Source of the DNA: Clostridia bacterium
GTDB lineage: Bacteria > Bacillota > Clostridia > TANB77 > CAG-465
DNA: 64,000 nucleotides
NCBI GenBank assembly: GCA_045611765.1
Contig: JAZKXT010000006.1
Location: 32,203 to 96,202, forward strand
Reading direction: 5' to 3'
Below are positions 2,527 through 48,318 of the stretch, piece by piece. Each line of letters starts with the position of its first letter. Positions within the stretch are counted from its first letter, which is position 1. Below the pieces are notes generated by a model. That model saw only the letters and a program-made list of their open reading frames with translations. It did no database searches and was not told the DNA's origin. The position numbers and the translations under genes are program-made.

Positions 2527-3493
2527 CATTATACTTCCTGTTTGGAACACAGAAAAATACATATATAAATGTTTACAAAGCATTTTTAGTAATACTTTTC
2601 AGGATTTCGAACTAATAGTTATAAACAACGCATCAGAGGATAATTCGGAAGATATAATATTAGACTTTAAGAAAAAACATTCGAATAAATTGATATATTT
2701 AAAAAGGGATAGAAATGATATAAGTGAAGCTAGAAATGATGGCATAGAATGCGCAAAAGGCAAATATATAGCGTTTATAGACAGCGATGATTATATAGCT
2801 CATAATATGTTCGAAGTTTTGATTGAAAAAATAGAAGAGGACAGTTTTGATATTGCCGTATGTGACGCTAAACTTGTATATGAGGATAGTGAAGACGCAA
2901 AAGTGGTTTCGTCAGGCTATACTCAAGATTTATATCACAAAAACAAAATAAGAGAAACAATGCCAATATTTTATCCGGTTATGTGGAACAAGATATATAA
3001 AGCTGAGCTTGTGAAACAAGTTAAATTTACAAGTGGAGTATGGTATGAGGACATGGAATACTTACTTAAACTTTATCCTCACATAAATAGCATTGGAGTA
3101 GTTAAGTACCCGTTATATAATTATTTACAAAGAAAAAATTCAATTACCTATACGTATAATGATAAACTTTATGATATAATTAATAATATGGAACGCGTAA
3201 TAGCATGCTACAAGGCGGAAGGGGTATATGAAGAGTATAAAGATGAACTAGAATACCTATACGCCAGATATGCATTTACAACATTCCCTAAAAGGCTAGC
3301 TAAATGTAAGGACAAGATAAAATATAACAAAGGAATAGATTTTGCTTTGGCTAAAGTAAAAGAATATTTCCCAAACTACAAGAAAAATAGATATTTACAG
3401 TTAATGGGAATAAAAGGAAGATATATAAAACACTTTAATAGATTTTTATCTCATATGAATTATATGGTACAAAATGGGAAAAAATATAATTAG
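2507..3493 (+). CDS. Glycosyltransferase family 2
   Basis: N-terminal GT-A motifs (LSIILPVWNTEKYIYKCLQSI, FIDSDD as the DxD motif). Start overlaps the upstream gene. Confidence 0.8.
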   Translation: MKNPKLSIILPVWNTEKYIYKCLQSIFSNTFQDFELIVINNASEDNSEDIILDFKKKHSNKLIYLKRDRNDISEARNDGIECAKGKYIAFIDSDDYIAHNMFEVLIEKIEEDSFDIAVCDAKLVYEDSEDAKVVSSGYTQDLYHKNKIRETMPIFYPVMWNKIYKAELVKQVKFTSGVWYEDMEYLLKLYPHINSIGVVKYPLYNYLQRKNSITYTYNDKLYDIINNMERVIACYKAEGVYEEYKDELEYLYARYAFTTFPKRLAKCKDKIKYNKGIDFALAKVKEYFPNYKKNRYLQLMGIKGRYIKHFNRFLSHMNYMVQNGKKYN

Positions 3494-3503
3494 TGAAGGA
3501 GAT

Positions 3504-3983
3504 TGCTTAATGAAAAAAAGAGTTATATTTATTTCTAGTACGGGTGGTCATTTTTCAGAATTAATGATATTAAAGCCAATATTTGAAAATTATGACTATC
3601 ACTTAATTACTGAAAAAACTGCGTCTACAATTTCGCTTAAACAAGAATATAAAGAAAGAATGCATTATCTAGTATACGGAACTAGGGTAAAGAAGGTTAA
3701 ATATTTTTTTAAAGCTACCTGGAATACTATAAAGTCGTTAGGTTTGTTTATTAAAATAAGACCTAAAGCGATAGTTACAACAGGTACTCATACTGCAATG
3801 CCCATGTGTATTATTGGAAAACTTTTAGGAGCAAAAATAGTATTTATAGAAACTTATGCAAATGTATTTACGCCTACCGGTTCTGGCAAGTTTATATATA
3901 AGTTTGCAGATAAGTTTATAGTGCAATGGGAGGATATGCTAAAAGTTTATCCGAAAGCTACATATCTAGGAGGAATATTTTAA
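3504..3983 (+). CDS. Alg14-like membrane-anchoring subunit of a split UDP-sugar glycosyltransferase (Cps14F/EpsE/PssD-like)
   Basis: KRVIFISSTGGHFSEL N-terminal motif and about 160 aa length. RBS GAAGGAG precedes the ATG at 3504. The stop overlaps the start of the next gene (TAATG). Confidence 0.65.
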   Translation, partial: CLMKKRVIFISSTGGHFSELMILKPIFENYDYHLITEKTASTISLKQEYKERMHYLVYGTRVKKVKYFFKATWNTIKSLGLFIKIRPKAIVTTGTHTAMPMCIIGKLLGAKIVFIETYANVFTPTGSGKFIYKFADKFIVQWEDMLKVYPKATYLGGIF

Positions 3984-4471
3984 TGATATTTTTAACAGTG
4001 GGAACACAAGACAAACCTTTTGCAAGAATTATACAGGCAGTAGAACAAGCTGTAATAGACGGCCAAATAACAGACGAAGTTATAGTACAAGCGGGTAATA
4101 CTAAATATGAATCTAAAGTTTTAAATGTGTTAAATTATGTTCCTTTTGAAGATTTTAACAAATATCTTTCAAAAGCTGATATAATAATAACACATGGTGG
4201 AGTTGGCTCAATACTTAATGCCCTAAAGCTAAAAAAGAAAGTTATTGCCGTCCCAAGGTTGAAAAAGTACAGCGAACATATAAACGATCATCAGCTTCAG
4301 GTAATACAAAAAATGACGGAACAGGGATATATTTTAAGCACAGAAGACGAAAAAGAAATAGGAAGAAAAGTAAAAGAAGCCGCAAATTTCGAAGTTAAAG
4401 AATACAGTAGTAACACAGAAAACTTTATACATAATTTTAAAAATGTTCTAGATGAGGTTTTAGATAGTTAA
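3983..4471 (+). CDS. Alg13-like catalytic subunit (GT28 C-terminal domain, Cps14G/EpsF/PssE-like)
   Basis: MIFLTVGTQ...ITHGGVGSILNALKLKKKVIAVPR matches the Alg13/MurG C-terminal domain pattern. Translationally coupled to the Alg14-like gene. Confidence 0.65.
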   Translation: MIFLTVGTQDKPFARIIQAVEQAVIDGQITDEVIVQAGNTKYESKVLNVLNYVPFEDFNKYLSKADIIITHGGVGSILNALKLKKKVIAVPRLKKYSEHINDHQLQVIQKMTEQGYILSTEDEKEIGRKVKEAANFEVKEYSSNTENFIHNFKNVLDEVLDS

Positions 4472-4552
4472 ATAATAATAGCAAATAATAAATAATAAAT
4501 AATAAAATAAAATTAATTACAATAAATTAAAAAAGAAATAAAGAGGGATATT

Positions 4553-5206
4553 ATGTTTGATATATTTACAACAGAAGGAATAATACAATTTTTATACTTT
4601 CTACCGGCCTTGCTATTGTCACTTGCAATACATGAGTTTGGACACGCTTTTGTTGCGTACAAACTAGGAGATAATAGTCAAAAATATTTAGGAAGACTAA
4701 CACTTTCGCCGTTCGCGCACATCGATTGGTTTGGCTTTATTTCTATTGCATTAATAGGAATAGGTTGGGGCAAACCTGTTATGGTAGACGATAGGAATTT
4801 TAAAAATAGAGGCAAAGGAAACATGTTAGTAGCACTTGCTGGTCCAACGTTTAATTTGGCTTTAGCATTAGTTGTAACAATACTTCTTAAGATACTTTTA
4901 ACAGTAGGCTTATTTACGACAATTGAAACAAATACAACTCTTGCAATTATATTTAATATAATATATTTGACAATACAGTTCAATATAATATTTGCTGTAT
5001 TTAACTTAATACCATTACCACCATTTGATGGTTCAAAAGTGTTGTATTACTTTTTACCATATAAAGCAAAACAATGGTTTGATAAACTAGAGCAATATTC
5101 TATTTGGATATTAGTTGCATTATATATAACGAAGGCATATGCGTGGGTTATTGAACCAGCATATTTTGTAATACAAGTATTACTTAATCTAATACTATTT
5201 ATGTAA
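4553..5206 (+). CDS. Site-2 protease family (peptidase M50) intramembrane metalloprotease
   Basis: HEFGH zinc motif inside a TM segment, downstream NLIPLPPFDGSKV (LDG-like) motif, multiple TM helices. Confidence 0.7.
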   Translation: MFDIFTTEGIIQFLYFLPALLLSLAIHEFGHAFVAYKLGDNSQKYLGRLTLSPFAHIDWFGFISIALIGIGWGKPVMVDDRNFKNRGKGNMLVALAGPTFNLALALVVTILLKILLTVGLFTTIETNTTLAIIFNIIYLTIQFNIIFAVFNLIPLPPFDGSKVLYYFLPYKAKQWFDKLEQYSIWILVALYITKAYAWVIEPAYFVIQVLLNLILFM

Positions 5207-5219
5207 AAGGGGAAAATAA

Positions 5220-6242
5220 ATGTATATATTAGGAATAGAAAGTAGCTGTGATGAAACATCCATAGCAATACTTGAATTTAATGGAGAGAACAATAACGAC
5301 AACAATTTTAAAGTGCTTGCAAACGTCGTATCTTCACAAATAGATGTACACAAAAAATATGGTGGTGTAGTGCCTGAAATAGCATCAAGGCATCACACTA
5401 AAAACATTGGGCTTGTGTTAGATGAAGCATTAGAAACGGCAAACATAAAACTCGAAGACTTGTGTTGTGTAGCTGTAACTATAGGGCCGGGGCTTGTTGG
5501 CGCACTTTTAGTTGGGGTGTCTTTTGCTAAAGCTTTGGCGTACACATTAAATATACCACTTGTACCTGTACATCATATAGCAGGACATATTGCTGCCAAC
5601 TTTTTAACACATCCAAATCTTAAACCGCCATTTTTATCATTAGTGGTATCTGGTGGTCATTCGCACGTAATAGAAGTTAAAGATTATACAAACTTTAAGA
5701 TTTTAGCTAAAACACGTGACGATGCTGTAGGAGAAGCTTTCGATAAAGTGTCACGTGTACTTGGACTAGGCTATCCTGGTGGCCCAGAAGTAAGTAAAAT
5801 GGCTGAAAAAGGACAAGCTACATATAAACTGCCTAAGACTAAATTTGAAGAGAATTTAGACTTTAGCTTTAGTGGTGTAAAAACAGCGGTGTTAAATATA
5901 GCGAATAAAGAAAAAGACAACTTAAGAGTCGCAGATATGTGTACAAGCTTCGAAAATAATGTAGCGGAAGTTTTAGTGGCACACACATTAGAACTAGCAA
6001 AGCAAACAAAAATAAACAAAATTGCCTTAGCCGGCGGAGTATCAGCAAACAGAAGAATACGCGAATTGTTAACACAAGAAGGAAATAAAGAAAACATACA
6101 AGTATATTTACCGGAACTTAAATATTGTACAGATAACGCTGCTATGATAACTGTTGCAGGAATATTTAAGTATAGAGAAGGCAAATATACAAAAGATTTA
6201 AGTTTAAATGCAAAAGCTAGCATGAATATAGAAGAGGAATAG
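5220..6242 (+). CDS. tsaD: tRNA N6-adenosine threonylcarbamoyltransferase TsaD (Kae1/YgjD family)
   Basis: MYILGIESSCDETS N-terminus, the GGVVPEIASRHH metal-binding region, 340 aa. Confidence 0.9.
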   Translation: MYILGIESSCDETSIAILEFNGENNNDNNFKVLANVVSSQIDVHKKYGGVVPEIASRHHTKNIGLVLDEALETANIKLEDLCCVAVTIGPGLVGALLVGVSFAKALAYTLNIPLVPVHHIAGHIAANFLTHPNLKPPFLSLVVSGGHSHVIEVKDYTNFKILAKTRDDAVGEAFDKVSRVLGLGYPGGPEVSKMAEKGQATYKLPKTKFEENLDFSFSGVKTAVLNIANKEKDNLRVADMCTSFENNVAEVLVAHTLELAKQTKINKIALAGGVSANRRIRELLTQEGNKENIQVYLPELKYCTDNAAMITVAGIFKYREGKYTKDLSLNAKASMNIEEE

Positions 6243-6252
6243 GGGTGAGATT

Positions 6253-6939
6253 ATGGCTATATATGCAATTTCAGATTTGCACTTGTCTAAAGCGGTTCCG
6301 AATAAATCAATGGAGCTATTTGGTAAGGGTTGGGAAAATTACGAACAAAGATTGGATGAAAATTGGAGAAAAACGGTAAAAGATACGGATACAGTACTTA
6401 TTCCGGGAGATATCTCTTGGGCAATAGATTTAAATGAAGCATACGAGGACTTTGCATATATAAACAGTCTTCCTGGAAACAAAATAATAATAAAAGGAAA
6501 CCATGATTATTATTTTTCAACACTCACAAAAGTAAATAAATTTTTAAAAGACAATAATTTTAATACGATCAAAGTATTAAATAACAATAGCTTCTTTGTA
6601 GAAAATATAAATATATGTGGTTTTAGAGGTTGGGGAAACACTGAAGATGATAAAACCAATAATTACAAAGTATACTTAAGAGAGCTTGTTCGTTTAGAGC
6701 TTTCATTAAATAGTATAGCGGAAGAGAACAAACACAAAGACATATTAGTAATGACTCATTTCCCACCTTGTAGGTATGAAATACAAGAGATTTTTAAGAA
6801 GTATAATGTTAAAAAATGTATTTATGGGCATCTTCACGGAGAGGGCCATTATATGGTTCGTGAGGGCGAAATAGATGGTGTAGAATACAAAATGGTTAGT
6901 GGTGATTATACGAAATTTGAACTAGTAAAGCTAAACTAG
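6253..6939 (+). CDS. Calcineurin-like metallophosphoesterase
   Basis: ISDLHL, GDISW and GNHDYY motifs. Confidence 0.7.
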   Translation: MAIYAISDLHLSKAVPNKSMELFGKGWENYEQRLDENWRKTVKDTDTVLIPGDISWAIDLNEAYEDFAYINSLPGNKIIIKGNHDYYFSTLTKVNKFLKDNNFNTIKVLNNNSFFVENINICGFRGWGNTEDDKTNNYKVYLRELVRLELSLNSIAEENKHKDILVMTHFPPCRYEIQEIFKKYNVKKCIYGHLHGEGHYMVREGEIDGVEYKMVSGDYTKFELVKLN

Positions 6940-6964
6940 TTTAACTATAAAAGAGAGGTTATAT

Positions 6965-7300
6965 ATGATAAAAGATTATAAAATAATAACATTATGTGGT
7001 TCAACTAAATTCAAAGATGAATTCATGAAAGCCCAAAAAGACTTAACATTACAAGGTAATATTGTAATTTCAGTAGGGCTATTTGGTCATTCTGGAGATA
7101 ATGAGGTGTGGGAGAACATGGATGACGGAACACTTACAAAAACTAAAATAATGTTAGACGATATGCACAAAAGAAAAATAGATATGGCGGATGAAATATT
7201 TGTAATTAATGTTGGCGGATACATTGGAGAAAGTACAAAATCTGAAATAGAATATGCCAAAAATACAGGTAAGACTGTAAATTATTTGGAAGAATTATAA
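6965..7300 (+). CDS. Small hypothetical protein with a nucleoside 2-deoxyribosyltransferase-like (SLOG-like) motif pattern
   Basis: 111 aa. C-terminal VGGYIGESTKSEIEYAKNTGKTV resembles the catalytic-glutamate region of the NDT family. I have no search confirmation. Confidence 0.3.
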   Translation: MIKDYKIITLCGSTKFKDEFMKAQKDLTLQGNIVISVGLFGHSGDNEVWENMDDGTLTKTKIMLDDMHKRKIDMADEIFVINVGGYIGESTKSEIEYAKNTGKTVNYLEEL

Positions 7301-7334
7301 TAAAAAATATTTACTTTATAGGATGTAATTTTAA

Positions 7335-7733
7335 ATGGAAAAAAGAATGAATAAAGAAGAACTAATTAATGTAATTGAAAGTTTAGGGATAGACTATGAA
7401 GAGTTTTGGATTTTATCTACTTCAGCTCTCGTTATAAGAGGGCTATATCCAGATGCGGGTGATTTAGATATTGCCGTTACTGAAAAAGGCTTAGAACAAT
7501 TAAAACAAAGATTCGAACTTAAACAAAAACCAAATGGTTGGTATATAGTTAATGACAAAGTAGAATGTGTATTAGATACAAAAGATGATTGGAATATTGA
7601 AAGGTATGGGAAATATAATTTAGAAAGCATACCTAAATATTACAAATATTTAATTTCTAGTACTAGAGAAAAAGATAAAGTCAAATTAAAAATAGTAGTA
7701 AAGTATATTAAAGATAATAATATAACTATCTAA
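7335..7733 (+). CDS. Small nucleotidyltransferase-fold protein (minimal pol-beta-like NTase), hypothetical
   Basis: 132 aa. RGLYPDAGDLDIAV resembles the G...[DE]xD signature of minimal nucleotidyltransferases. Confidence 0.3.
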   Translation: MEKRMNKEELINVIESLGIDYEEFWILSTSALVIRGLYPDAGDLDIAVTEKGLEQLKQRFELKQKPNGWYIVNDKVECVLDTKDDWNIERYGKYNLESIPKYYKYLISSTREKDKVKLKIVVKYIKDNNITI

Positions 7734-7825
7734 ACAAATATTTTACTAAAAACCATTGTATTTTATTTTAAGTTATGTTAAAATATTAAGGTAAAAATGA
7801 TTCCAAATACAAGGAGGGACAAATA

Positions 7826-8029
7826 ATGAGAAAAGAAATACAACCAAACTATAATGAAGCAACAATAACTTGTGCTTGTGGTAACGTGATTAAAGTTGGT
7901 TCAACTAAAAAAGAAATGAAAACAGATACATGTAGTGCATGTCATCCTTTCTTTACAGGATTAAAACAAGCTGTTTCTTCTAAAGGTAGAGCCGCAAAAT
8001 TTATGGAAAAATACGGAACAAAAATGTAA
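7826..8029 (+). CDS. rpmE: 50S ribosomal protein L31
   Basis: 67 aa. CxCG...CSxCHPFFTG zinc-ribbon signature typical of L31 type A. Confidence 0.9.
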   Translation: MRKEIQPNYNEATITCACGNVIKVGSTKKEMKTDTCSACHPFFTGLKQAVSSKGRAAKFMEKYGTKM

Positions 8030-8036
8030 TATAATG

Positions 8037-8064
8037 GTGCTACTTAGTGTAGCACTTTTATTTT
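8037..8064 (+). terminator. Rho-independent terminator after rpmE
   Basis: GTGCTAC-TTAGT-GTAGCAC hairpin followed by TTTTATTTT. Confidence 0.7.
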
Positions 8065-8082
8065 AATGTAAATGAGGTTATT

Positions 8083-8889
8083 ATGAAAGAAAAACACGTG
8101 GCATTTATTTATGACTTTGATGGGACTTTAGCTCATGGGAATATACAAGAATATAACTTTATACCCGCGCTTAATATGACTAGCAACGAGTTTTGGAGCG
8201 AAGTAGATAGATTGAAATTTGAAAATAATATGGAAAATGTACTAGCATATATGTATCTAATGCTAAAAAAGGCAGAGGAAAACAATATCTCTGTTAGAAA
8301 ATCTTCATTCATAGAATACGGCAAAAATATAGAATTTTACCCAGGTGTAATTTCTTGGTTTAATAGAATTAATGCGCATGCTAAAAATCTTGGGATTACA
8401 ATGCATCATTATATAGTATCGTCAGGTATTAAAGAAATGATAGAAGGTACAGAAATAGCAAAAGAGTTTGAGAGAATATATGCTTGTAGCTTTTTATACA
8501 ATATAGATGAAATCGCTAAATGGCCAGCAGTTTCTGTAAACTATACGAATAAAACCCAATTTCTATATAGAATAAATAAAGGTATATATGAAGTATATGA
8601 TTCAAGTATAAACGACAAGATGCTAGATAAAGACAAGAAAATTCCTTTTGAAAATATGGTGTACTTTGGAGATGGGATGACAGATGTGCCATGTATGAAA
8701 GTGGTAAAAGATAACGGTGGCCAGGCCATATCTGTATATTATAAAAATAACCAATTAGCCAATAAATTACTTGCTGATGGTAGAGTAAATTATATTGCAA
8801 CAACAGATTATACAGAAGGAAGCGATATTGACAAATATATAAAAGATATACTAAATAAAATTAGTAAAAGGACGGAAAATGAACAGTAA
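8083..8889 (+). CDS. HAD-superfamily hydrolase
   Basis: N-terminal DFDGTL (DxDGT) motif and C-terminal GDGMTD motif. Confidence 0.6.
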   Translation: MKEKHVAFIYDFDGTLAHGNIQEYNFIPALNMTSNEFWSEVDRLKFENNMENVLAYMYLMLKKAEENNISVRKSSFIEYGKNIEFYPGVISWFNRINAHAKNLGITMHHYIVSSGIKEMIEGTEIAKEFERIYACSFLYNIDEIAKWPAVSVNYTNKTQFLYRINKGIYEVYDSSINDKMLDKDKKIPFENMVYFGDGMTDVPCMKVVKDNGGQAISVYYKNNQLANKLLADGRVNYIATTDYTEGSDIDKYIKDILNKISKRTENEQ

Positions 8890-9751
8890 ATTAAATAGTG
8901 AAATAAATGTTTTAATAGATAAGTACAATTTAAATTCCCTTGATATAACTTCAAATCCAAGGGAACTTATTATTATGCTCTTATCTCATATAAAAAAGAC
9001 AAGTATAGCAAATATTAAACTAGACATGGTAAAAGTAGAAGATAAGGATATAGAACAACTAGAAAGGATGTTAAATAAAATAGCAAATGAAAAATTACCA
9101 CCTCAATATGTTACAAACAAAGAATATATTTGGGGTGAGGAGTTTAATGTTAGTGAAAATGTTTTAATTCCAAGACAAGACACCGAAACGTTAATAGAAT
9201 TTGCAATGAATAGCATTAAAGAAAATGGGTATAAAATTGCACTAGATATGTGTACAGGTTCCGGGATAATAGGTATACTTATAGCAAAGCATACAGAAAT
9301 TTCTCACGTAACGCTTTCAGATATTTCTTCTGAGGCTCTACAAGTGGCAAGAGAAAACATTAATATGAATGGTGTAGAAAGCAAATGCAATATTATAAAG
9401 TCTAATATGTTTGATGCTATATACAAATTAAATAACAAATATGATATAATACTTTCAAATCCACCATACCTTACCAAAAGTGAAATGAAAGAGATATCGG
9501 CGTTTGTAGAAAAAGAACCTAGCATTGCATTATACGGCGGACGTGACGGTTTAGATTTTTACAGAATAATATATAATGAGTCTAAAAACTTTTTAAAAGA
9601 TGGTGGAATGATAGCAGTAGAAATTGGACACTTACAAGCACAAGATGTTATAGATATAATCTTGTCGCACAAGTGCTATTATAATGTTCAAGTTGTGCAA
9701 GATATAAATAATAAAGATAGGGTGGTAGTATGTCATTTTCAGAACAAATAA
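8879..9751 (+). CDS. prmC: Release factor glutamine N5-methyltransferase PrmC (HemK)
   Basis: NPPY motif (ILSNPPYLT), SAM-binding DMCTGSG motif, start overlaps the upstream gene. Confidence 0.85.
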   Translation: MNSKLNSEINVLIDKYNLNSLDITSNPRELIIMLLSHIKKTSIANIKLDMVKVEDKDIEQLERMLNKIANEKLPPQYVTNKEYIWGEEFNVSENVLIPRQDTETLIEFAMNSIKENGYKIALDMCTGSGIIGILIAKHTEISHVTLSDISSEALQVARENINMNGVESKCNIIKSNMFDAIYKLNNKYDIILSNPPYLTKSEMKEISAFVEKEPSIALYGGRDGLDFYRIIYNESKNFLKDGGMIAVEIGHLQAQDVIDIILSHKCYYNVQVVQDINNKDRVVVCHFQNK

Positions 9752-10428
9752 AAGATGAAATACTGATGACTAAAAATAAAAAATGCTGTATCTTACCTTT
9801 AAGATATGGTGAACTTATAACAGAATCTAAAGACATAAAGATAACAGATATTAAAAAGTTAGTTAAAGATACTTGCTGTAAAAAAGCATTTTTAAAAGGA
9901 GTGTTTTTGGGCAGTGGTTGTGTTGTAAATCCAAATACAGATTATCATTTTGAAGTTACAACTAAATCTAAAGTATATGCAGACTATGTTATAAAACTTA
10001 TGAGTGAATTTGAGCTTTCTTCTAAGATAATTAAAAGAAATTCTAACTATGTTATATACTTAAAGGATTCCGAACAGATATCTACTTTACTTGCTGTTTT
10101 AGAAGCAAACAAAGCAGTTTTAGAGTACGAAAATATTAGAATAAGCAAAAGTATAACAAATAATATAAATAGAAGTGTAAATTGTGAAACTGCAAATTTA
10201 ACTAAAACAATTGAAGCAGCAGTAAAACAGCAAGAAGCAATAAATAAACTAAAGTCAGAGGACAGGTTTAACGAGCTTAATCCAAGGCTGAAAGAAATCG
10301 CCTCTTTAAGATTAAAATATCCAGAGGCCTCTTTAGATGAACTGGCTGAAAAATGCTCATATAAAATATCTAAATCTGGAGTATATCACAGATTAAATAA
10401 AATTATTAAAATAGCGGAGGAAGAGTAA
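9730..10428 (+). CDS. whiA: WhiA-family DNA-binding protein, unusually short
   Basis: MSFSEQIKDE...KKCC N-terminus and a C-terminal HTH-like tail are typical of WhiA. At 232 aa it is about 80 aa shorter than canonical WhiA. Confidence 0.5.
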   Translation: MSFSEQIKDEILMTKNKKCCILPLRYGELITESKDIKITDIKKLVKDTCCKKAFLKGVFLGSGCVVNPNTDYHFEVTTKSKVYADYVIKLMSEFELSSKIIKRNSNYVIYLKDSEQISTLLAVLEANKAVLEYENIRISKSITNNINRSVNCETANLTKTIEAAVKQQEAINKLKSEDRFNELNPRLKEIASLRLKYPEASLDELAEKCSYKISKSGVYHRLNKIIKIAEEE

Positions 10429-22935: not shown

Positions 22936-23466
22936 ATGTATTATGAAGATAAACGTAGTTTTTATATAAAACAATATGGTCCTGCTGTATTAATTATTGG
23001 TATAGCTTTAGTACTAATAATTACAGGAATAGTTATTGGCCTAAAAGATGATAATGCAGTCGCTAAGCAACCAGTAGAAAGTAATGCTTATGTATATACA
23101 GATAACGCTATAACAGGTACTGTAACAAAAACAAAAGGATTAACAATCACAGTAACAGCAAATAATACTACATATGATATTAATCTCATAGGAATAATGC
23201 AACACGACAAAAATCCAAATTTATCTAAAACTATAGCAAGTGATTTAACAGGTAAGACTGTAACCATAGATTATGATATTGCAAAAACAGAAAACAATAA
23301 GACATACGCATATTTATATGTTGATGGTACATTATATAATGAAACATTACTTGCACAAGGCCTTGCAGAATTGAGAACCGAAAGACAAAATATAAATAAA
23401 TTAGACATACTTGTAGCAGCTCAAATTAAAGCAAGATATGAAGGTTTAGGAATTTGGAAATATTAA
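22936..23466 (+). CDS. Membrane-anchored thermonuclease (staphylococcal nuclease / SNase-like)
   Basis: N-terminal TM, SNase-like C-terminus (TLLAQGLAELRTE...ARYEGLGIW). Promoter TTGACT-17-TATCAT upstream. Confidence 0.6.
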   Translation: MYYEDKRSFYIKQYGPAVLIIGIALVLIITGIVIGLKDDNAVAKQPVESNAYVYTDNAITGTVTKTKGLTITVTANNTTYDINLIGIMQHDKNPNLSKTIASDLTGKTVTIDYDIAKTENNKTYAYLYVDGTLYNETLLAQGLAELRTERQNINKLDILVAAQIKARYEGLGIWKY

Positions 23467-23569
23467 AATTGAATGCTGACTAAAGAAAACTTTAGTTTTC
23501 ATATATAACCTCTTATAATCAACCTCTACATATAGTAGGGGTTTGATTTATTTTAATTAGAAAAGTTAT

Positions 23570-23598
23570 AAAAAACGACGCTCTAAAATCGATTTTAA
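23570..23598. repeat. Left inverted repeat (IR-L) of the candidate invertible element
   Basis: AAAAAACGACGCTCTAAAATCGATTTTAAG. Its reverse complement recurs at 24371-24400. Core AAAATCGATTTT is itself palindromic. Confidence 0.8.
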
Positions 23599-23651
23599 GG
23601 GGTTACAAAAATTCAGGTGATAAAATTTACGTCTGAAAGGAGTGTGATTTA

Positions 23652-23975
23652 ATGTATGTACCTTATATCATCAGAAATCGAATGAAAAATAATATAATAG
23701 AAAAACAAATGAGACAAAAAATGAAACTAAAGAATAATAAGTATGTATATCTGAAGTTGAATAGAAGATACGCCAGTCTTATAATTAATTCGTTAGCATT
23801 TACAAGAAGAGCCTTATATTATAAGAAGATGGAAGAAATACCAGTTGAAATGTTTTTTGATGTTGATAATTTTGAAGAAGATATTTTCGACTTAAATTTA
23901 TCCATAAATAAGATAACAGCAGATTGTAAAAGGAATTTTTATAATTGGAAAGAGTACAAAATTTACAAAAAGTAA
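23652..23975 (+). CDS. Small very basic hypothetical protein encoded inside the IR-bounded segment
   Basis: 107-aa ORF with RBS AAAGGAG and an extended -10 (TGATAAAAT) just inside IR-L. May be spurious in AT-rich DNA. Confidence 0.3.
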   Translation: MYVPYIIRNRMKNNIIEKQMRQKMKLKNNKYVYLKLNRRYASLIINSLAFTRRALYYKKMEEIPVEMFFDVDNFEEDIFDLNLSINKITADCKRNFYNWKEYKIYKK

Positions 23976-24370
23976 AAAATAGCGAAATCCATATAAGTTA
24001 GATAGGGCAAGGCATAGAAGGTCAAGAACCGTTTATTTTGTCTTGCTTTATTTCGCAAAATAAATATTTTGTGTATTTTAGAGAAGGAACTATTGATTAT
24101 TTAGTCCACTTCTATTATAATATTAGTATACATAGCTTATATGCTGTCTGACACCTTATATATATAAATATATTTATTTAACTTTCTATTTCACTCTACT
24201 TATTATAAGTTGTCATTCATTACTATATTATTTTACTATATATTTTATATTTAGTATATACTTTTATATACAATTTATAAAATTTTATGATTTTAAGCCC
24301 TTTTCCTCAAATTCGATTTTAAAGGCCTTTTTTCGGACGTCAAATGATACCACCCCGATTCTAAAAACGT

Positions 24371-24400
24371 CTTAAAATCGATTTTAGAGCGTCGGTTTTT
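24371..24400. repeat. Right inverted repeat (IR-R), ending at the recombinase RBS
   Basis: CTTAAAATCGATTTTAGAGCGTCGGTTTTT is the reverse complement of IR-L (24 bp perfect). A degenerate third copy AAATTCGATTTTAAAGG lies at 24310-24326. Confidence 0.8.
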
Positions 24401-24410
24401 GGAGGTTTTT

Positions 24411-25367
24411 ATGAAACAAATGACATTTGATGATATGCCAAGGATTTTACAAGATTATCTTAAGAATTACTTAATAATTACTAAAAACAGATCTAAAACA
24501 ACTGTTAAAGAATATTATTATGATTTACGTGATGCATTTCAATTTATTAAACGAGATAAATATAATATTAAAGTTGAAAATTTTAAAGAAATAAATATTA
24601 CGGATTTAGATGCAAATTTTTTTAAATCAATTGAAGTTTCAGATATATATGAATATTTATATGATAAAAATACTAAAGCAATTTCTAGAGCTAGAAAAAT
24701 TTCATCAATTAGATCATTTTTTAATTATTTGTGTAATGTTGTAAAAATTATTGATAGAAATCCTTGTGTGGGTCTAGAATCGCCAAAATTAGAAAAAAGA
24801 TTGCCAAAATATTTAGAACTTACCGAGGCCAAGTCCCTACTCCACTCTGTTGATGGTGAATTCAAAACAAGAGACTATGCAATCTTAACCATATTCCTAA
24901 ACTGTGGACTAAGACTTTCTGAGCTAGTAAATATAAATATGGAGCATATTAAAGGAGATACTTTATCTGTTATTGGTAAGGGTAATAAAGAACGCTCTGT
25001 ACACTTAAATAAAGCCTGCTTAGATGCTATCCAGGATTATCTTAAGGATAGACCAATAGATAAGGTTAAAGGCGAAGATAGACGTGCTCTTTTCATTAGC
25101 AGGAAGTATAAAAGGATAAGTCCTAGAATGATTGAAATAATGGTAAAAGACTATATTGTAAAGGCTGGTCTTGACCCTAAAAAGTATACTCCCCACAAAC
25201 TTAGACACACTGCAGCTACTCTAATGCACAAATATGGTGGCGTAGATATTAGAACGTTACAACAAGTACTAGGACACGAAACTATAGCTACTACGCAAAT
25301 ATATACTCATATAGACAGCGAAGAAGTTAAAAATGCCATAGATAACAATCCATTAAATAAGATGTAA
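24411..25367 (+). CDS. Tyrosine site-specific recombinase (XerC/XerD/RecV-like)
   Basis: C-terminal catalytic region HKLRHTAATL...LGHETIATTQIYTHI with R..H..R..Y residues. ATG at 24411 follows GGAGG. Confidence 0.85.
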   Translation: MKQMTFDDMPRILQDYLKNYLIITKNRSKTTVKEYYYDLRDAFQFIKRDKYNIKVENFKEINITDLDANFFKSIEVSDIYEYLYDKNTKAISRARKISSIRSFFNYLCNVVKIIDRNPCVGLESPKLEKRLPKYLELTEAKSLLHSVDGEFKTRDYAILTIFLNCGLRLSELVNINMEHIKGDTLSVIGKGNKERSVHLNKACLDAIQDYLKDRPIDKVKGEDRRALFISRKYKRISPRMIEIMVKDYIVKAGLDPKKYTPHKLRHTAATLMHKYGGVDIRTLQQVLGHETIATTQIYTHIDSEEVKNAIDNNPLNKM

Positions 25368-25783: not shown

Positions 25784-26080
25784 CTAATTATATATAGGTA
25801 TTTCTAATATTTGTCCTGAATATATGTTACTACTTTTTAAGTTGTTTATATTCTTTATTTCAATTACTATATTCTGTACATTTAATTCTTCAGAAGAGTT
25901 ATTACAAACATCTTCAGCTATTTTCCAAAGAGTATCGTTACTAGCAACAGTAACTGACTTTGTATCTATATGTTTGTTTCCAAAAGTGAAATTGGAAATA
26001 AAATTCATTACTATAATAAACAATAAAATTATGCATATATTTGTCATTATTCTTTTCATATTTAATCTATATCTTTTCAT
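25784..26080 (-). CDS. LysM-domain protein with N-terminal TM
   Basis: LysM-like VTVASNDTLWKIAE...GQILEIP. Start at 26080 is preceded by GGAGG. Confidence 0.6.
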   Translation of the reverse strand: MKRYRLNMKRIMTNICIILLFIIVMNFISNFTFGNKHIDTKSVTVASNDTLWKIAEDVCNNSSEELNVQNIVIEIKNINNLKSSNIYSGQILEIPIYN

Positions 26081-48244: not shown

Positions 48245-48318
48245 TGGCAGGGGCACTAGGAATCGAACCTAGCTCTGGAGTTTTGGAGACTCTTATTCTA
48301 CCAATGAACTATGCCCCT
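48245..48318 (-). tRNA. trnW: tRNA-Trp (anticodon CCA)
   Basis: 74-nt cloverleaf: acceptor AGGGGCA/TGCCCCT, T-arm CTAGG-TTCGATT-CCTAG, anticodon loop CTCCAAA, 3' GCCA. Close to E. coli tRNA-Trp. Confidence 0.85.

Follow-up and report, generated by a model that had tools for sequence, protein, structure and literature searches.

A probable terminus recombination locus of uncultured low-GC Clostridia, with an Xer-family gene, a dif-like site, a conserved polar palindrome and a putative phage relic

The stretch analysed here is 64,000 nucleotides of DNA from a Clostridia bacterium (assembly GCA_045611765.1, contig JAZKXT010000006.1, positions 32,203 to 96,202; hereafter the window). At 23570-25367 it holds a segment of about 770 bp that lies between a left and a right inverted repeat (IR-L and IR-R) and abuts a tyrosine recombinase gene. 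A sequence-only reading had proposed that this segment is a phase-variable invertible switch. We consider instead that it probably belongs to a terminus recombination locus of uncultured low-GC Clostridia. This locus would combine an Xer-family gene, a dif-like site, a second palindrome that we call the T-site (IR-R being its main copy) and the relic of a phage. In such a locus, chromosome dimers would be resolved at the dif-like core (24050-24077), into which integrase-less filamentous phages and small elements are inserted in relatives, as integrative mobile elements exploiting Xer (IMEX) would be. The recombinase would also bind the T-site directly ahead of its own ribosome-binding site (RBS) and thereby throttle its own gene, and a T-site occupied in this way would offer temperate phages a dependable attachment target. 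The 770-bp segment would then consist of a phage relic, dif and the recombinase leader, enclosed between one relic and one functional T-site.

Position of the locus at the replication terminus

The GC skew ranges from +0.1 to +0.27 up to ~24 kb and from -0.1 to -0.26 past ~26 kb, and the cumulative G-C reaches its maximum at 25798. Nearly all long open reading frames (ORFs) are on the plus strand left of 25.4 kb, and nearly all are on the minus strand right of 26.7 kb. As both the skew and the coding strand flip at 24-26 kb, the locus is a replication terminus. The skew also flips at the recombinase gene in the four related loci that were tested (L004, L050, L052 and L054; related contigs are given such handles throughout). 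Moreover, the gene order PolA-SLT-YebC-SNase-variable region-recombinase on one side and LysM-ClpX-ClpP-Tig on the other is kept in relatives whose recombinases are 58-97% identical. These relatives were found through the recombinase protein. One of them, L052, carries a tandem duplication between SNase and recombinase (3069-9621), which comprises two identical copies of a 99-aa gene, leucine-rich-repeat-like genes of 472 and 560 aa and a duplicated N-terminal fragment of SNase.

The features of the locus are the following (no strand is given for the sites):

22936-23466, plus strand: thermonuclease (SNase)-like gene (Pfam SNase), membrane-anchored product; last conserved gene of the left replichore before the variable region
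23521-23543, plus strand: intrinsic-terminator-like hairpin and T-run that end the SNase gene; the only terminator call in 23400-24480
23570-23599: IR-L, T-site copy in inverted orientation; TCT-type arm on the outer side, CTT-type arm on the inner side
23652-23975, plus strand: ORF107, coding for a small, basic, mostly helical protein with 26 homologues
24050-24077: dif-like core ('pal2'), ATTTCGCAAAA TAAATA TTTTGTGTATT (11+6+11), unique in the window
24093-24121, plus strand: promoter-like TTGATT-17-TATAAT (consensus scan, 10/12 matches), just right of the dif-like site
24125-24304, plus strand: very AT-rich leader, of which ~24231-24300 is conserved in the clade alignment
24305-24327: site 3, degenerate T-site inverted relative to IR-R, then a T-run
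24368-24400: IR-R, the main T-site, CGTCTTAAAATCGATTTTAGAGCG followed by TCGG and a T-run; polar near-palindrome
24411-25367, plus strand: Xer-family tyrosine recombinase, 318 aa; last plus-strand gene ahead of the strand switch

Inverted repeats and orientation of the segment

Read directly, IR-L (AAAAAACGACGCTCTAAAATCGATTTTAAG, 23570-23599) and IR-R (24371-24400) are reverse complements of each other bar one mismatch. Their perfect 24-bp core, CGACGCTCTAAAATCGATTTTAAG, is found at 23576-23599 on the plus strand and at 24371-24394 on the minus strand, i.e. in two copies 771 bp apart. In the repeat search, the pair extends over 68 nt when weaker complementarity (75%) is admitted, and 713 nt then separate the arms. 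When up to three mismatches are allowed, the 24-mer has these two copies only in the 64 kb, where none is expected (100 shuffles). The repeats described by the sequence-only reading are thus real and non-random. They are also linked, as it had noted, to the adjacent tyrosine recombinase gene, and each copy is built of two arms, as recombinase sites are. IR-R ends 10 nt ahead of the RBS and 16 nt ahead of the recombinase ATG at 24411. Three further elements of that description stand: the degenerate third copy (site 3, 24305-24327, core AAATTCGATTTT, in the orientation of IR-L), the 107-aa ORF, which is a real gene as its 26 homologues attest, and the AT-rich tract. The 12-nt core by itself is not significant in the window (3 found vs. 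1.1 expected). The identification of the repeats as a dispersed element of the repetitive extragenic palindromic or miniature inverted-repeat transposable type (REP/MITE) was dropped because they form a single locus in the window, without further 24-bp copies, and a single locus in each related contig (up to 21 kb).

We then considered the orientation of the segment in related contigs. ORF107 is co-directional with its neighbours in 18 contigs out of 18 (the window and 17 others), over a range of ORF107 identity from 61 to 100%. These neighbours are the SNase and/or recombinase genes in 17 contigs and inserted phage genes in L120. Orientation was read from assemblies, which report the majority orientation, so that rare inversion stays compatible with this count.

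The distribution of the two repeats is very unequal. IR-L is confined to the subclade that has ORF107. Within this subclade, it is intact in L003, L005, L010 and L011 and, but for a single change at the inner end, also in L121 and L122. It shows 1-3 changes in L001 (where they include the core, TTGA), L004, L007 and L117, more in L123 and 5 in L120, and it is essentially gone in L118. ORF107 is intact throughout this series of decay. IR-R is invariant in relatives that have no IR-L, and it therefore did not arise as an inverton end. Judged from these alignments, IR-R is old and invariant, and IR-L is young and decaying.

A true invertible element, in which the recombinase would join IR-L to IR-R and flip 23600-24370 (ORF107, the dif-like site and the upstream promoter region), leading to phase-variable expression of the recombinase or of ORF107, is on these data quite unlikely. 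Such an element would account for a perfect 24-bp inverted repeat made of two-arm sites beside a tyrosine recombinase gene, for the lineage-specific substitutions common to IR-L and IR-R and for the very long inverted repeat of L117 (both detailed below). In addition, with IR-R abutting the RBS, any promoter upstream of the recombinase gene would have to be located within the segment. However, none of the 18 contigs is inverted despite ORF107 divergence down to 61% identity, all the other lineages have IR-R without IR-L, and IR-L has decayed or been lost in L001, L118 and L120 next to an intact ORF107. The recombinase is, moreover, a conserved gene of the terminus and not an accessory invertase; it is essentially the chromosomal Xer orthologue. 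Finally, the enclosed DNA contains, in place of a promoter cassette, a phage-type gene, a dif-like site used for phage attachment and the leader of the recombinase gene. The switch is therefore not supported, and the locus looks like one of chromosome maintenance.

The dif-like site and integrase-less filamentous prophages

The dif-like site lies ~280-370 bp upstream of the T-site in ~45 loci and forms an invariant block in the clade alignment. Its arms (GCGCAAAA and TTTTGTG) are constant in these loci, across all lineages, and its 6-bp centre varies (TAAATA, TAATAA or TCAAAG). Constant arms around a varying 6-bp centre are the signature of a recombination core. The GAGAAGG directly right of this site in the window (24081-24087), which we take to match the core of the Bacillus SpoIIIE recognition sequence, belongs to an AGAGAAG block that is kept in the clade. 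Related purine-rich words follow the dif-like site in other lineages, and such words show a strong strand skew around the terminus.

An integrase-less filamentous phage inserted in a terminus palindrome beside an Xer gene corresponds to an IMEX at dif. The contig L120 (8.3 kb) shows, in this order, the end of the SNase gene, IR-L, an orthologue of ORF107, a complete filamentous phage, a gene that we call ORF106 and the start of the AT-rich leader. The phage codes for a replication protein of the Phage_CRI family, coat-size proteins, a 602-aa protein of adsorption-protein size and Zot. The Zot and Rep assignments of the prophage were confirmed by PHROG matches, and no recombinase or transposase family is on record among the 14 genes called in L120. 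Its left junction reads ATTTCGCAAAATTAATAG/TTTCGCG and its right junction ATTTCGCAAAATTAATATTTTGTG; ATTTCGCAAAATTAATA is common to both, and the crossover lies inside the palindrome. The same prophage was found in L002, again with its junctions in the dif-like site. Positions 570-8110 of L120 and 1-5640 of L002 represent a complete inovirus-like prophage of ~7.5 kb, with 602-604-aa adsorption-size and 60-aa coat-like proteins. Assemblies break inside the prophage, as expected for tandem or circular forms; such breaks and the duplicated att-proximal genes suggest successive or tandem integrations.

Two other insertions, both from another lineage, involve the same site. In L093, a Zot-bearing insertion has its end inside the dif-like site. 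In L103, a 1.9-kb element occupies this site, with a full site on its left and on its right a hybrid site that retains the TTTTGT arm only. Our search for literature linking IMEX, Xer and Clostridia returned nothing.

Three candidates were discarded for this part of the locus. One model treated IR-L and IR-R as the attL and attR sites of an element inserted between two palindromes, and it was dropped because the L120 junctions fall in the other palindrome. A tRNA-like stretch with a T-arm motif (GGTTCGAATCC) on the phage side of the left junction (L120:665-745) received no call from ARAGORN. The best match to E. coli dif in the window (21/28, at 1689) is a chance match inside a gene.

ORF107 and the origin of IR-L

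The 26 homologues of ORF107 share 61-93% identity with it. ORF107 is also 30-36% identical to ORF106 of the L002 prophage and to a 119-aa gene of L050, and it is 39% identical to the L120 counterpart of ORF106 over a partial tblastn match. These three genes each lie directly upstream of a dif-like site. In L117, moreover, the position left of IR-L is occupied not by SNase but by a homologue of a small gene, of filamentous-phage type, that lies on the minus strand in the L002 prophage. The matching position of the ORF107 homologues in prophages and the inovirus-type gene abutting IR-L in L117 are our reasons for regarding IR-L and ORF107 as the putative right-hand relic of a filamentous prophage, which would have carried a copy of the T-site ahead of its att-proximal gene. 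The putative mobile-element content of the window comes down to ORF107 and IR-L, and their status as a relic derives from homology and position.

No Pfam, NCBIfam or PHROG family matched ORF107 above threshold, and its AlphaFold2 model is of low confidence (predicted local distance difference test, pLDDT, 61). Neither ORF107 nor the prophage Zot has a relative in IMG/VR. At a guess, by analogy, proteins of the ORF107 family might function like the Xer activation factor XafT.

Conservation and contexts of the T-site

The sequence of the T-site in IR-R, CTTAAAATCGATTTTAGAGCGTC, is unchanged ahead of the recombinase gene in lineages without IR-L. L050, L052 and L054, which were chosen via the recombinase protein (58-70% identical) and not via the T-site, have no IR-L, and cttAAAATCGATTTTagagcgtc is identical in all three, ~15-20 bp from the called start. 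To scan metagenome contigs, a DNA pattern of the T-site was used in place of the recombinase protein, with which these contigs gave no match. The pattern retrieved 62 metagenome loci (GC 0.18-0.50) and about 9 distinct viral contexts. The consensus, CG(C/T)CTTAAAATCGATT(T/C)TAGAGCG, is a near-palindrome made polar by its CTT arm vs. its TCT arm, and it is flanked by an A-run and a T-run in most cases. The T-site accompanies homologues of the recombinase in three arrangements: directly upstream of the recombinase gene, ~2 kb upstream of a convergent recombinase copy beside rho, or 181 bp upstream of a 32%-identical recombinase copy with no dif-like site nearby. Usually, a degenerate partner in inverted orientation lies 45-200 bp upstream of the T-site; it is represented by site 3 in the window and found at -181/-202 in a distant rho-linked lineage.

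Several elements adjoin the T-site, which is also a hot spot of prophage integration. A tailed prophage in L017 meets host DNA 36 nt left of it, and L092 and L109, which are 96-97% identical to L017 rightward of the T-site, show the ordinary leader and no prophage at this junction. Among close relatives, homology breaks 28-40 nt right of the start of the T-site, and L007 and L123 carry insertions between IR-R and the recombinase gene. Some T-site-bearing elements have an integrase-type gene of their own (L082 and L063), and one has a weak relaxase match (L059). In L050 (9964-11040) and L066 (two matches), direct near-perfect copies of the T-site stand on either side of the recombinase gene, with ~45 nt of left flank in common; given these direct copies, the recombinase gene would be excisable as a circle.

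Taken together, the alignments indicate that the T-site is under strong host constraint and is used as an attachment site by prophages. With its invariant centre, it looks more like a site of protein binding than like a crossover region. The T-site, whose motif was not found in the literature searched, is an undescribed cis-element to which the recombinase most likely binds.

The T-site could alternatively be the true dimer-resolution site of a single recombinase. IR-L and IR-R would then delimit a chromosomal analogue of the pdif modules, which Xer could invert or move, and 24050-24077 would serve another system, e.g. a canonical XerCD encoded elsewhere. We regard this as unlikely, although several observations point to it. 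It is the T-site, not the dif-like site, that follows the recombinase homologues in the three arrangements, including that with the 32%-identical copy. Direct T-site repeats flank the recombinase gene in L050 and L066, prophages and variable cassettes abut the T-site, and pdif modules with inverted flanking sites have been described (PMC12907356, PMC11705084). By contrast, the integrase-less elements, which need a host recombinase, sit in 24050-24077 rather than in the T-site, and some of the T-site elements (L082, L063) have their own integrase. Furthermore, the AAAA and TTTT blocks of the T-site are 4 bp apart around an invariant centre, whereas the centre of difH and difSL is variable and 6-11 bp long.

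It is very unlikely, in our estimate, that T-sites are polar protein-binding sites that organise the terminus, either as a fork trap like the inverted Ter pairs of B. subtilis or for SMC unloading like the XerD sites known as XDS. The inverted pairs that IR-R forms with IR-L and with site 3 would then be an expression of this polarity. The sites are exactly at the skew switch, their CTT and TCT arms make them polar, they form inverted pairs 45-200 bp apart in a distant lineage too, and an invariance that includes the centre suits a binding site better than a crossover site. Nevertheless, the recombinase is the only conserved candidate binding protein nearby, and the inverted partner is degenerate in most lineages. 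A broader conjecture, to which we give a slender chance, makes the T-site (CGYCTTAAAATCGATTYTAGAGCG) a hitherto undescribed element that defines the terminus in a wide range of uncultured low-GC Clostridia. The linked Xer protein would bind this polar site in a non-recombination role (fork trap, SMC unloading or terminus anchoring), the termination zone would be delimited by inverted pairs of the site, and phages would target it as they do tRNA genes.

Three other observations concern T-site-like sequences. An exact 20-mer, TAAAATCGATTCTAGAGCGT, occurs in about 15 viral contigs of ~100 kb (L013-L035; GC ~0.5), which form one repeated family with a GC-rich, unrelated context; these matches are probably coincidental, as the left arm is missing and a single repeated family is involved. 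A guessed palindromic 'attP' (CTTAAAATCGATTTTAAG) gave 13 unrelated-looking matches in viral contigs. In L065, a block of GC ~0.55 in a host of GC ~0.26 (5980-9937) begins 360-400 nt right of the T-site. This block is either a foreign element or a chimeric assembly, and its distance from the T-site makes it not decisive.

The recombinase gene

The recombinase has the Pfam domains Phage_integrase and SAM_1. Its best NCBIfam models are XerC, XerD and archaeal XerA, all under their (equivalog) cut-offs, and it scores 144 bits with the XerS model vs. a cut-off of 267. Its nearest solved relative is E. coli XerD (6e-37), XerH being distant (E 1e-13). It belongs to a large orthologue group of uncultured Clostridia (58-97% identity), labelled XerC by NCBI. 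The start at ATG 24411 is backed by 318-aa homologues, and the alternative TTG start at 24399 is probably not used. In L017 (7421-8402), L092 and L117, an apparent frameshift splits the recombinase into two ORFs, which may reflect sequencing errors in A/T runs or real pseudogenes.

Leader, promoter and RNA-level signals

The AT-rich segment contains 16 promoter-like matches vs. 7.9 expected. The promoter-like block at 24093-24121, which faces the recombinase gene, is kept throughout the clade and in L002 as well, and the leader and the recombinase gene may be transcribed from it. The leader block at 24231-24300 is conserved better than the coding sequence of ORF107 in the clade, L002 and L007 included, and no RNA family or obvious motif accounts for this conservation. 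Concerning the autoregulatory site that the sequence-only reading had offered as another option for the repeats, the position of IR-R just upstream of the RBS fits, and no promoter is confidently mapped.

It is highly improbable that the repeats act at the RNA level, with IR-R as a terminator or attenuator in the recombinase leader and IR-L as the terminator of an antisense transcript. The A-run and T-run flanks, the copies located at gene 3' ends or between convergent genes in many contexts and the alternative pairings that site 3 and IR-R could form would suit this explanation. However, the terminator scan of 23400-24480 called neither repeat, and the hairpins are weak. The folds of IR-L on both strands and of IR-R on the minus strand (-2.9 to -5.3 kcal/mol), i.e. 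3 of the 4 folds, are no better than shuffles; that of IR-R on the plus strand reaches -12.4 kcal/mol (z -2.6) through pairing of the flanking A-run with the U-run. The leader has a fold z-score of -3.1, but the palindromes drive this fold. Nothing relevant matched Rfam at the gathering threshold in the whole window or at E<=10 in 23400-24500. Moreover, terminator stems normally co-vary, whereas the T-site is an invariant, single-locus sequence across deep lineages. A T-box, considered on account of GGGGTGGTATC on the minus strand near IR-R, was dropped because there was no Rfam T-box match. The sole Rfam match in the window at the gathering threshold is a single tRNA gene at 48248-48318, on the minus strand.

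Points against a terminus recombination locus with a relic IR-L

Several points weigh against the terminus recombination locus that we favour. Simple counts of positions that the dif-like site has in common with dif of E. coli or B. subtilis (18-19/28) are not significant in AT-rich DNA, and this includes the 19/28 of 24050-24077 with B. subtilis dif, which is tied for the best in the window. For this reason, we base the dif assignment on architecture, position, conservation pattern and occupancy. Some lineage-specific changes are common to IR-L and IR-R, namely A to G at -5 in L004-L009 and G to A at -14 in L007-L009; other changes, in L004, L006 and L117, are not mirrored. A pure dead relic fails to explain the shared changes, which suggest occasional gene conversion or recombination between the copies. 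In L117, the inverted repeat extends over ~42 bp and is nearly perfect. Recombination cores do not usually have a fully invariant centre, and that of the T-site may mean that another protein is involved. Finally, which of the two palindromes the recombinase would cut is a choice that we infer.

Significance and comparison with known systems

The ending of replication and the resolution of dimers are poorly known outside the E. coli and B. subtilis models, and the uncultured Clostridia of gut and rumen are a blank in this respect. Here an Xer gene, a dif-like site and a more conserved polar palindrome are grouped as a compact module within 0.4 kb at the skew switch. Mobile elements have provided natural experiments on it, with filamentous phages in one site and tailed prophages and cassettes abutting the other, and Xer-exploiting inoviruses are documented in Gram-positive anaerobes. 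If the T-site is the operator of the recombinase, the locus would be a tidy case of an autoregulated Xer. A role in recombination, as a second site, or in organising the terminus would instead add a new component to terminus biology and provide a useful marker for termini and integration hot spots in metagenome-assembled genomes. The interest of the locus therefore lies in the T-site and in the Clostridial IMEX, not in phase variation.

In B. subtilis, TerI and TerII are inverted repeats beside rtp, and XerD acts at terminus sites (XDS) in a role other than recombination. By analogy only, the present locus resembles these systems in having polar sites in inverted pairs at the terminus and an Xer-family protein that may act without recombination. 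It differs from them in that there is no sequence similarity and no RTP homologue. Like the IMEX of the CTXphi, TLCphi and VGJphi type, the Clostridial prophages are inoviruses with Rep and Zot and without integrase, inserted in a dif-like site with hybrid sites on both sides. Unlike known IMEX, they have a Gram-positive Clostridia host and another site sequence, and the window itself retains a one-gene relic only.

In streptococci and lactococci, XerS/difSL associates a single Xer-type gene with a physically linked terminus site in one module (PMC5357621). The recombinase gene is similarly close to the dif-like site here (0.33 kb, and within ~3 kb in a distant clade), but the site sequence is unrelated and an extra, invariant T-site stands between the dif-like site and the gene. 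The difH site, TTGAAAA CTATAA TTTTCAA, is not adjacent to its recombinase gene (PMC3325230). As in XerH/difH of Helicobacter and Campylobacter, an A-run, a 6-bp centre and a T-run follow one another in our dif-like site (GCAAAA TAAATA TTTTGT), although the recombinase is only distantly similar to XerH (E 1e-13 vs. 6e-37 for XerD). In Legionellales, a new single-recombinase system was found via the integration of mobile elements.

The pdif modules of Acinetobacter are cassettes between inversely oriented XerC/D sites (PMC12907356, PMC11705084), and here also a short gene cassette lies between inverted sites of recombinase type. Those modules form plasmid arrays with 28-bp XerC/XerD sites and resistance or toxin genes, whereas the present one is a single chromosomal cassette at the terminus, its bounding sites are not of dif type, and neither movement nor inversion was seen among the related contigs. 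Lastly, the locus shares with fimS-FimB/FimE and with the RecV switches of C. difficile the presence of short inverted repeats beside a tyrosine recombinase gene, which is insufficient to call an inverton. Unlike these switches, it is seen in one orientation, its recombinase is a conserved gene of the terminus, and one of its two repeats is far older and more conserved than the other.

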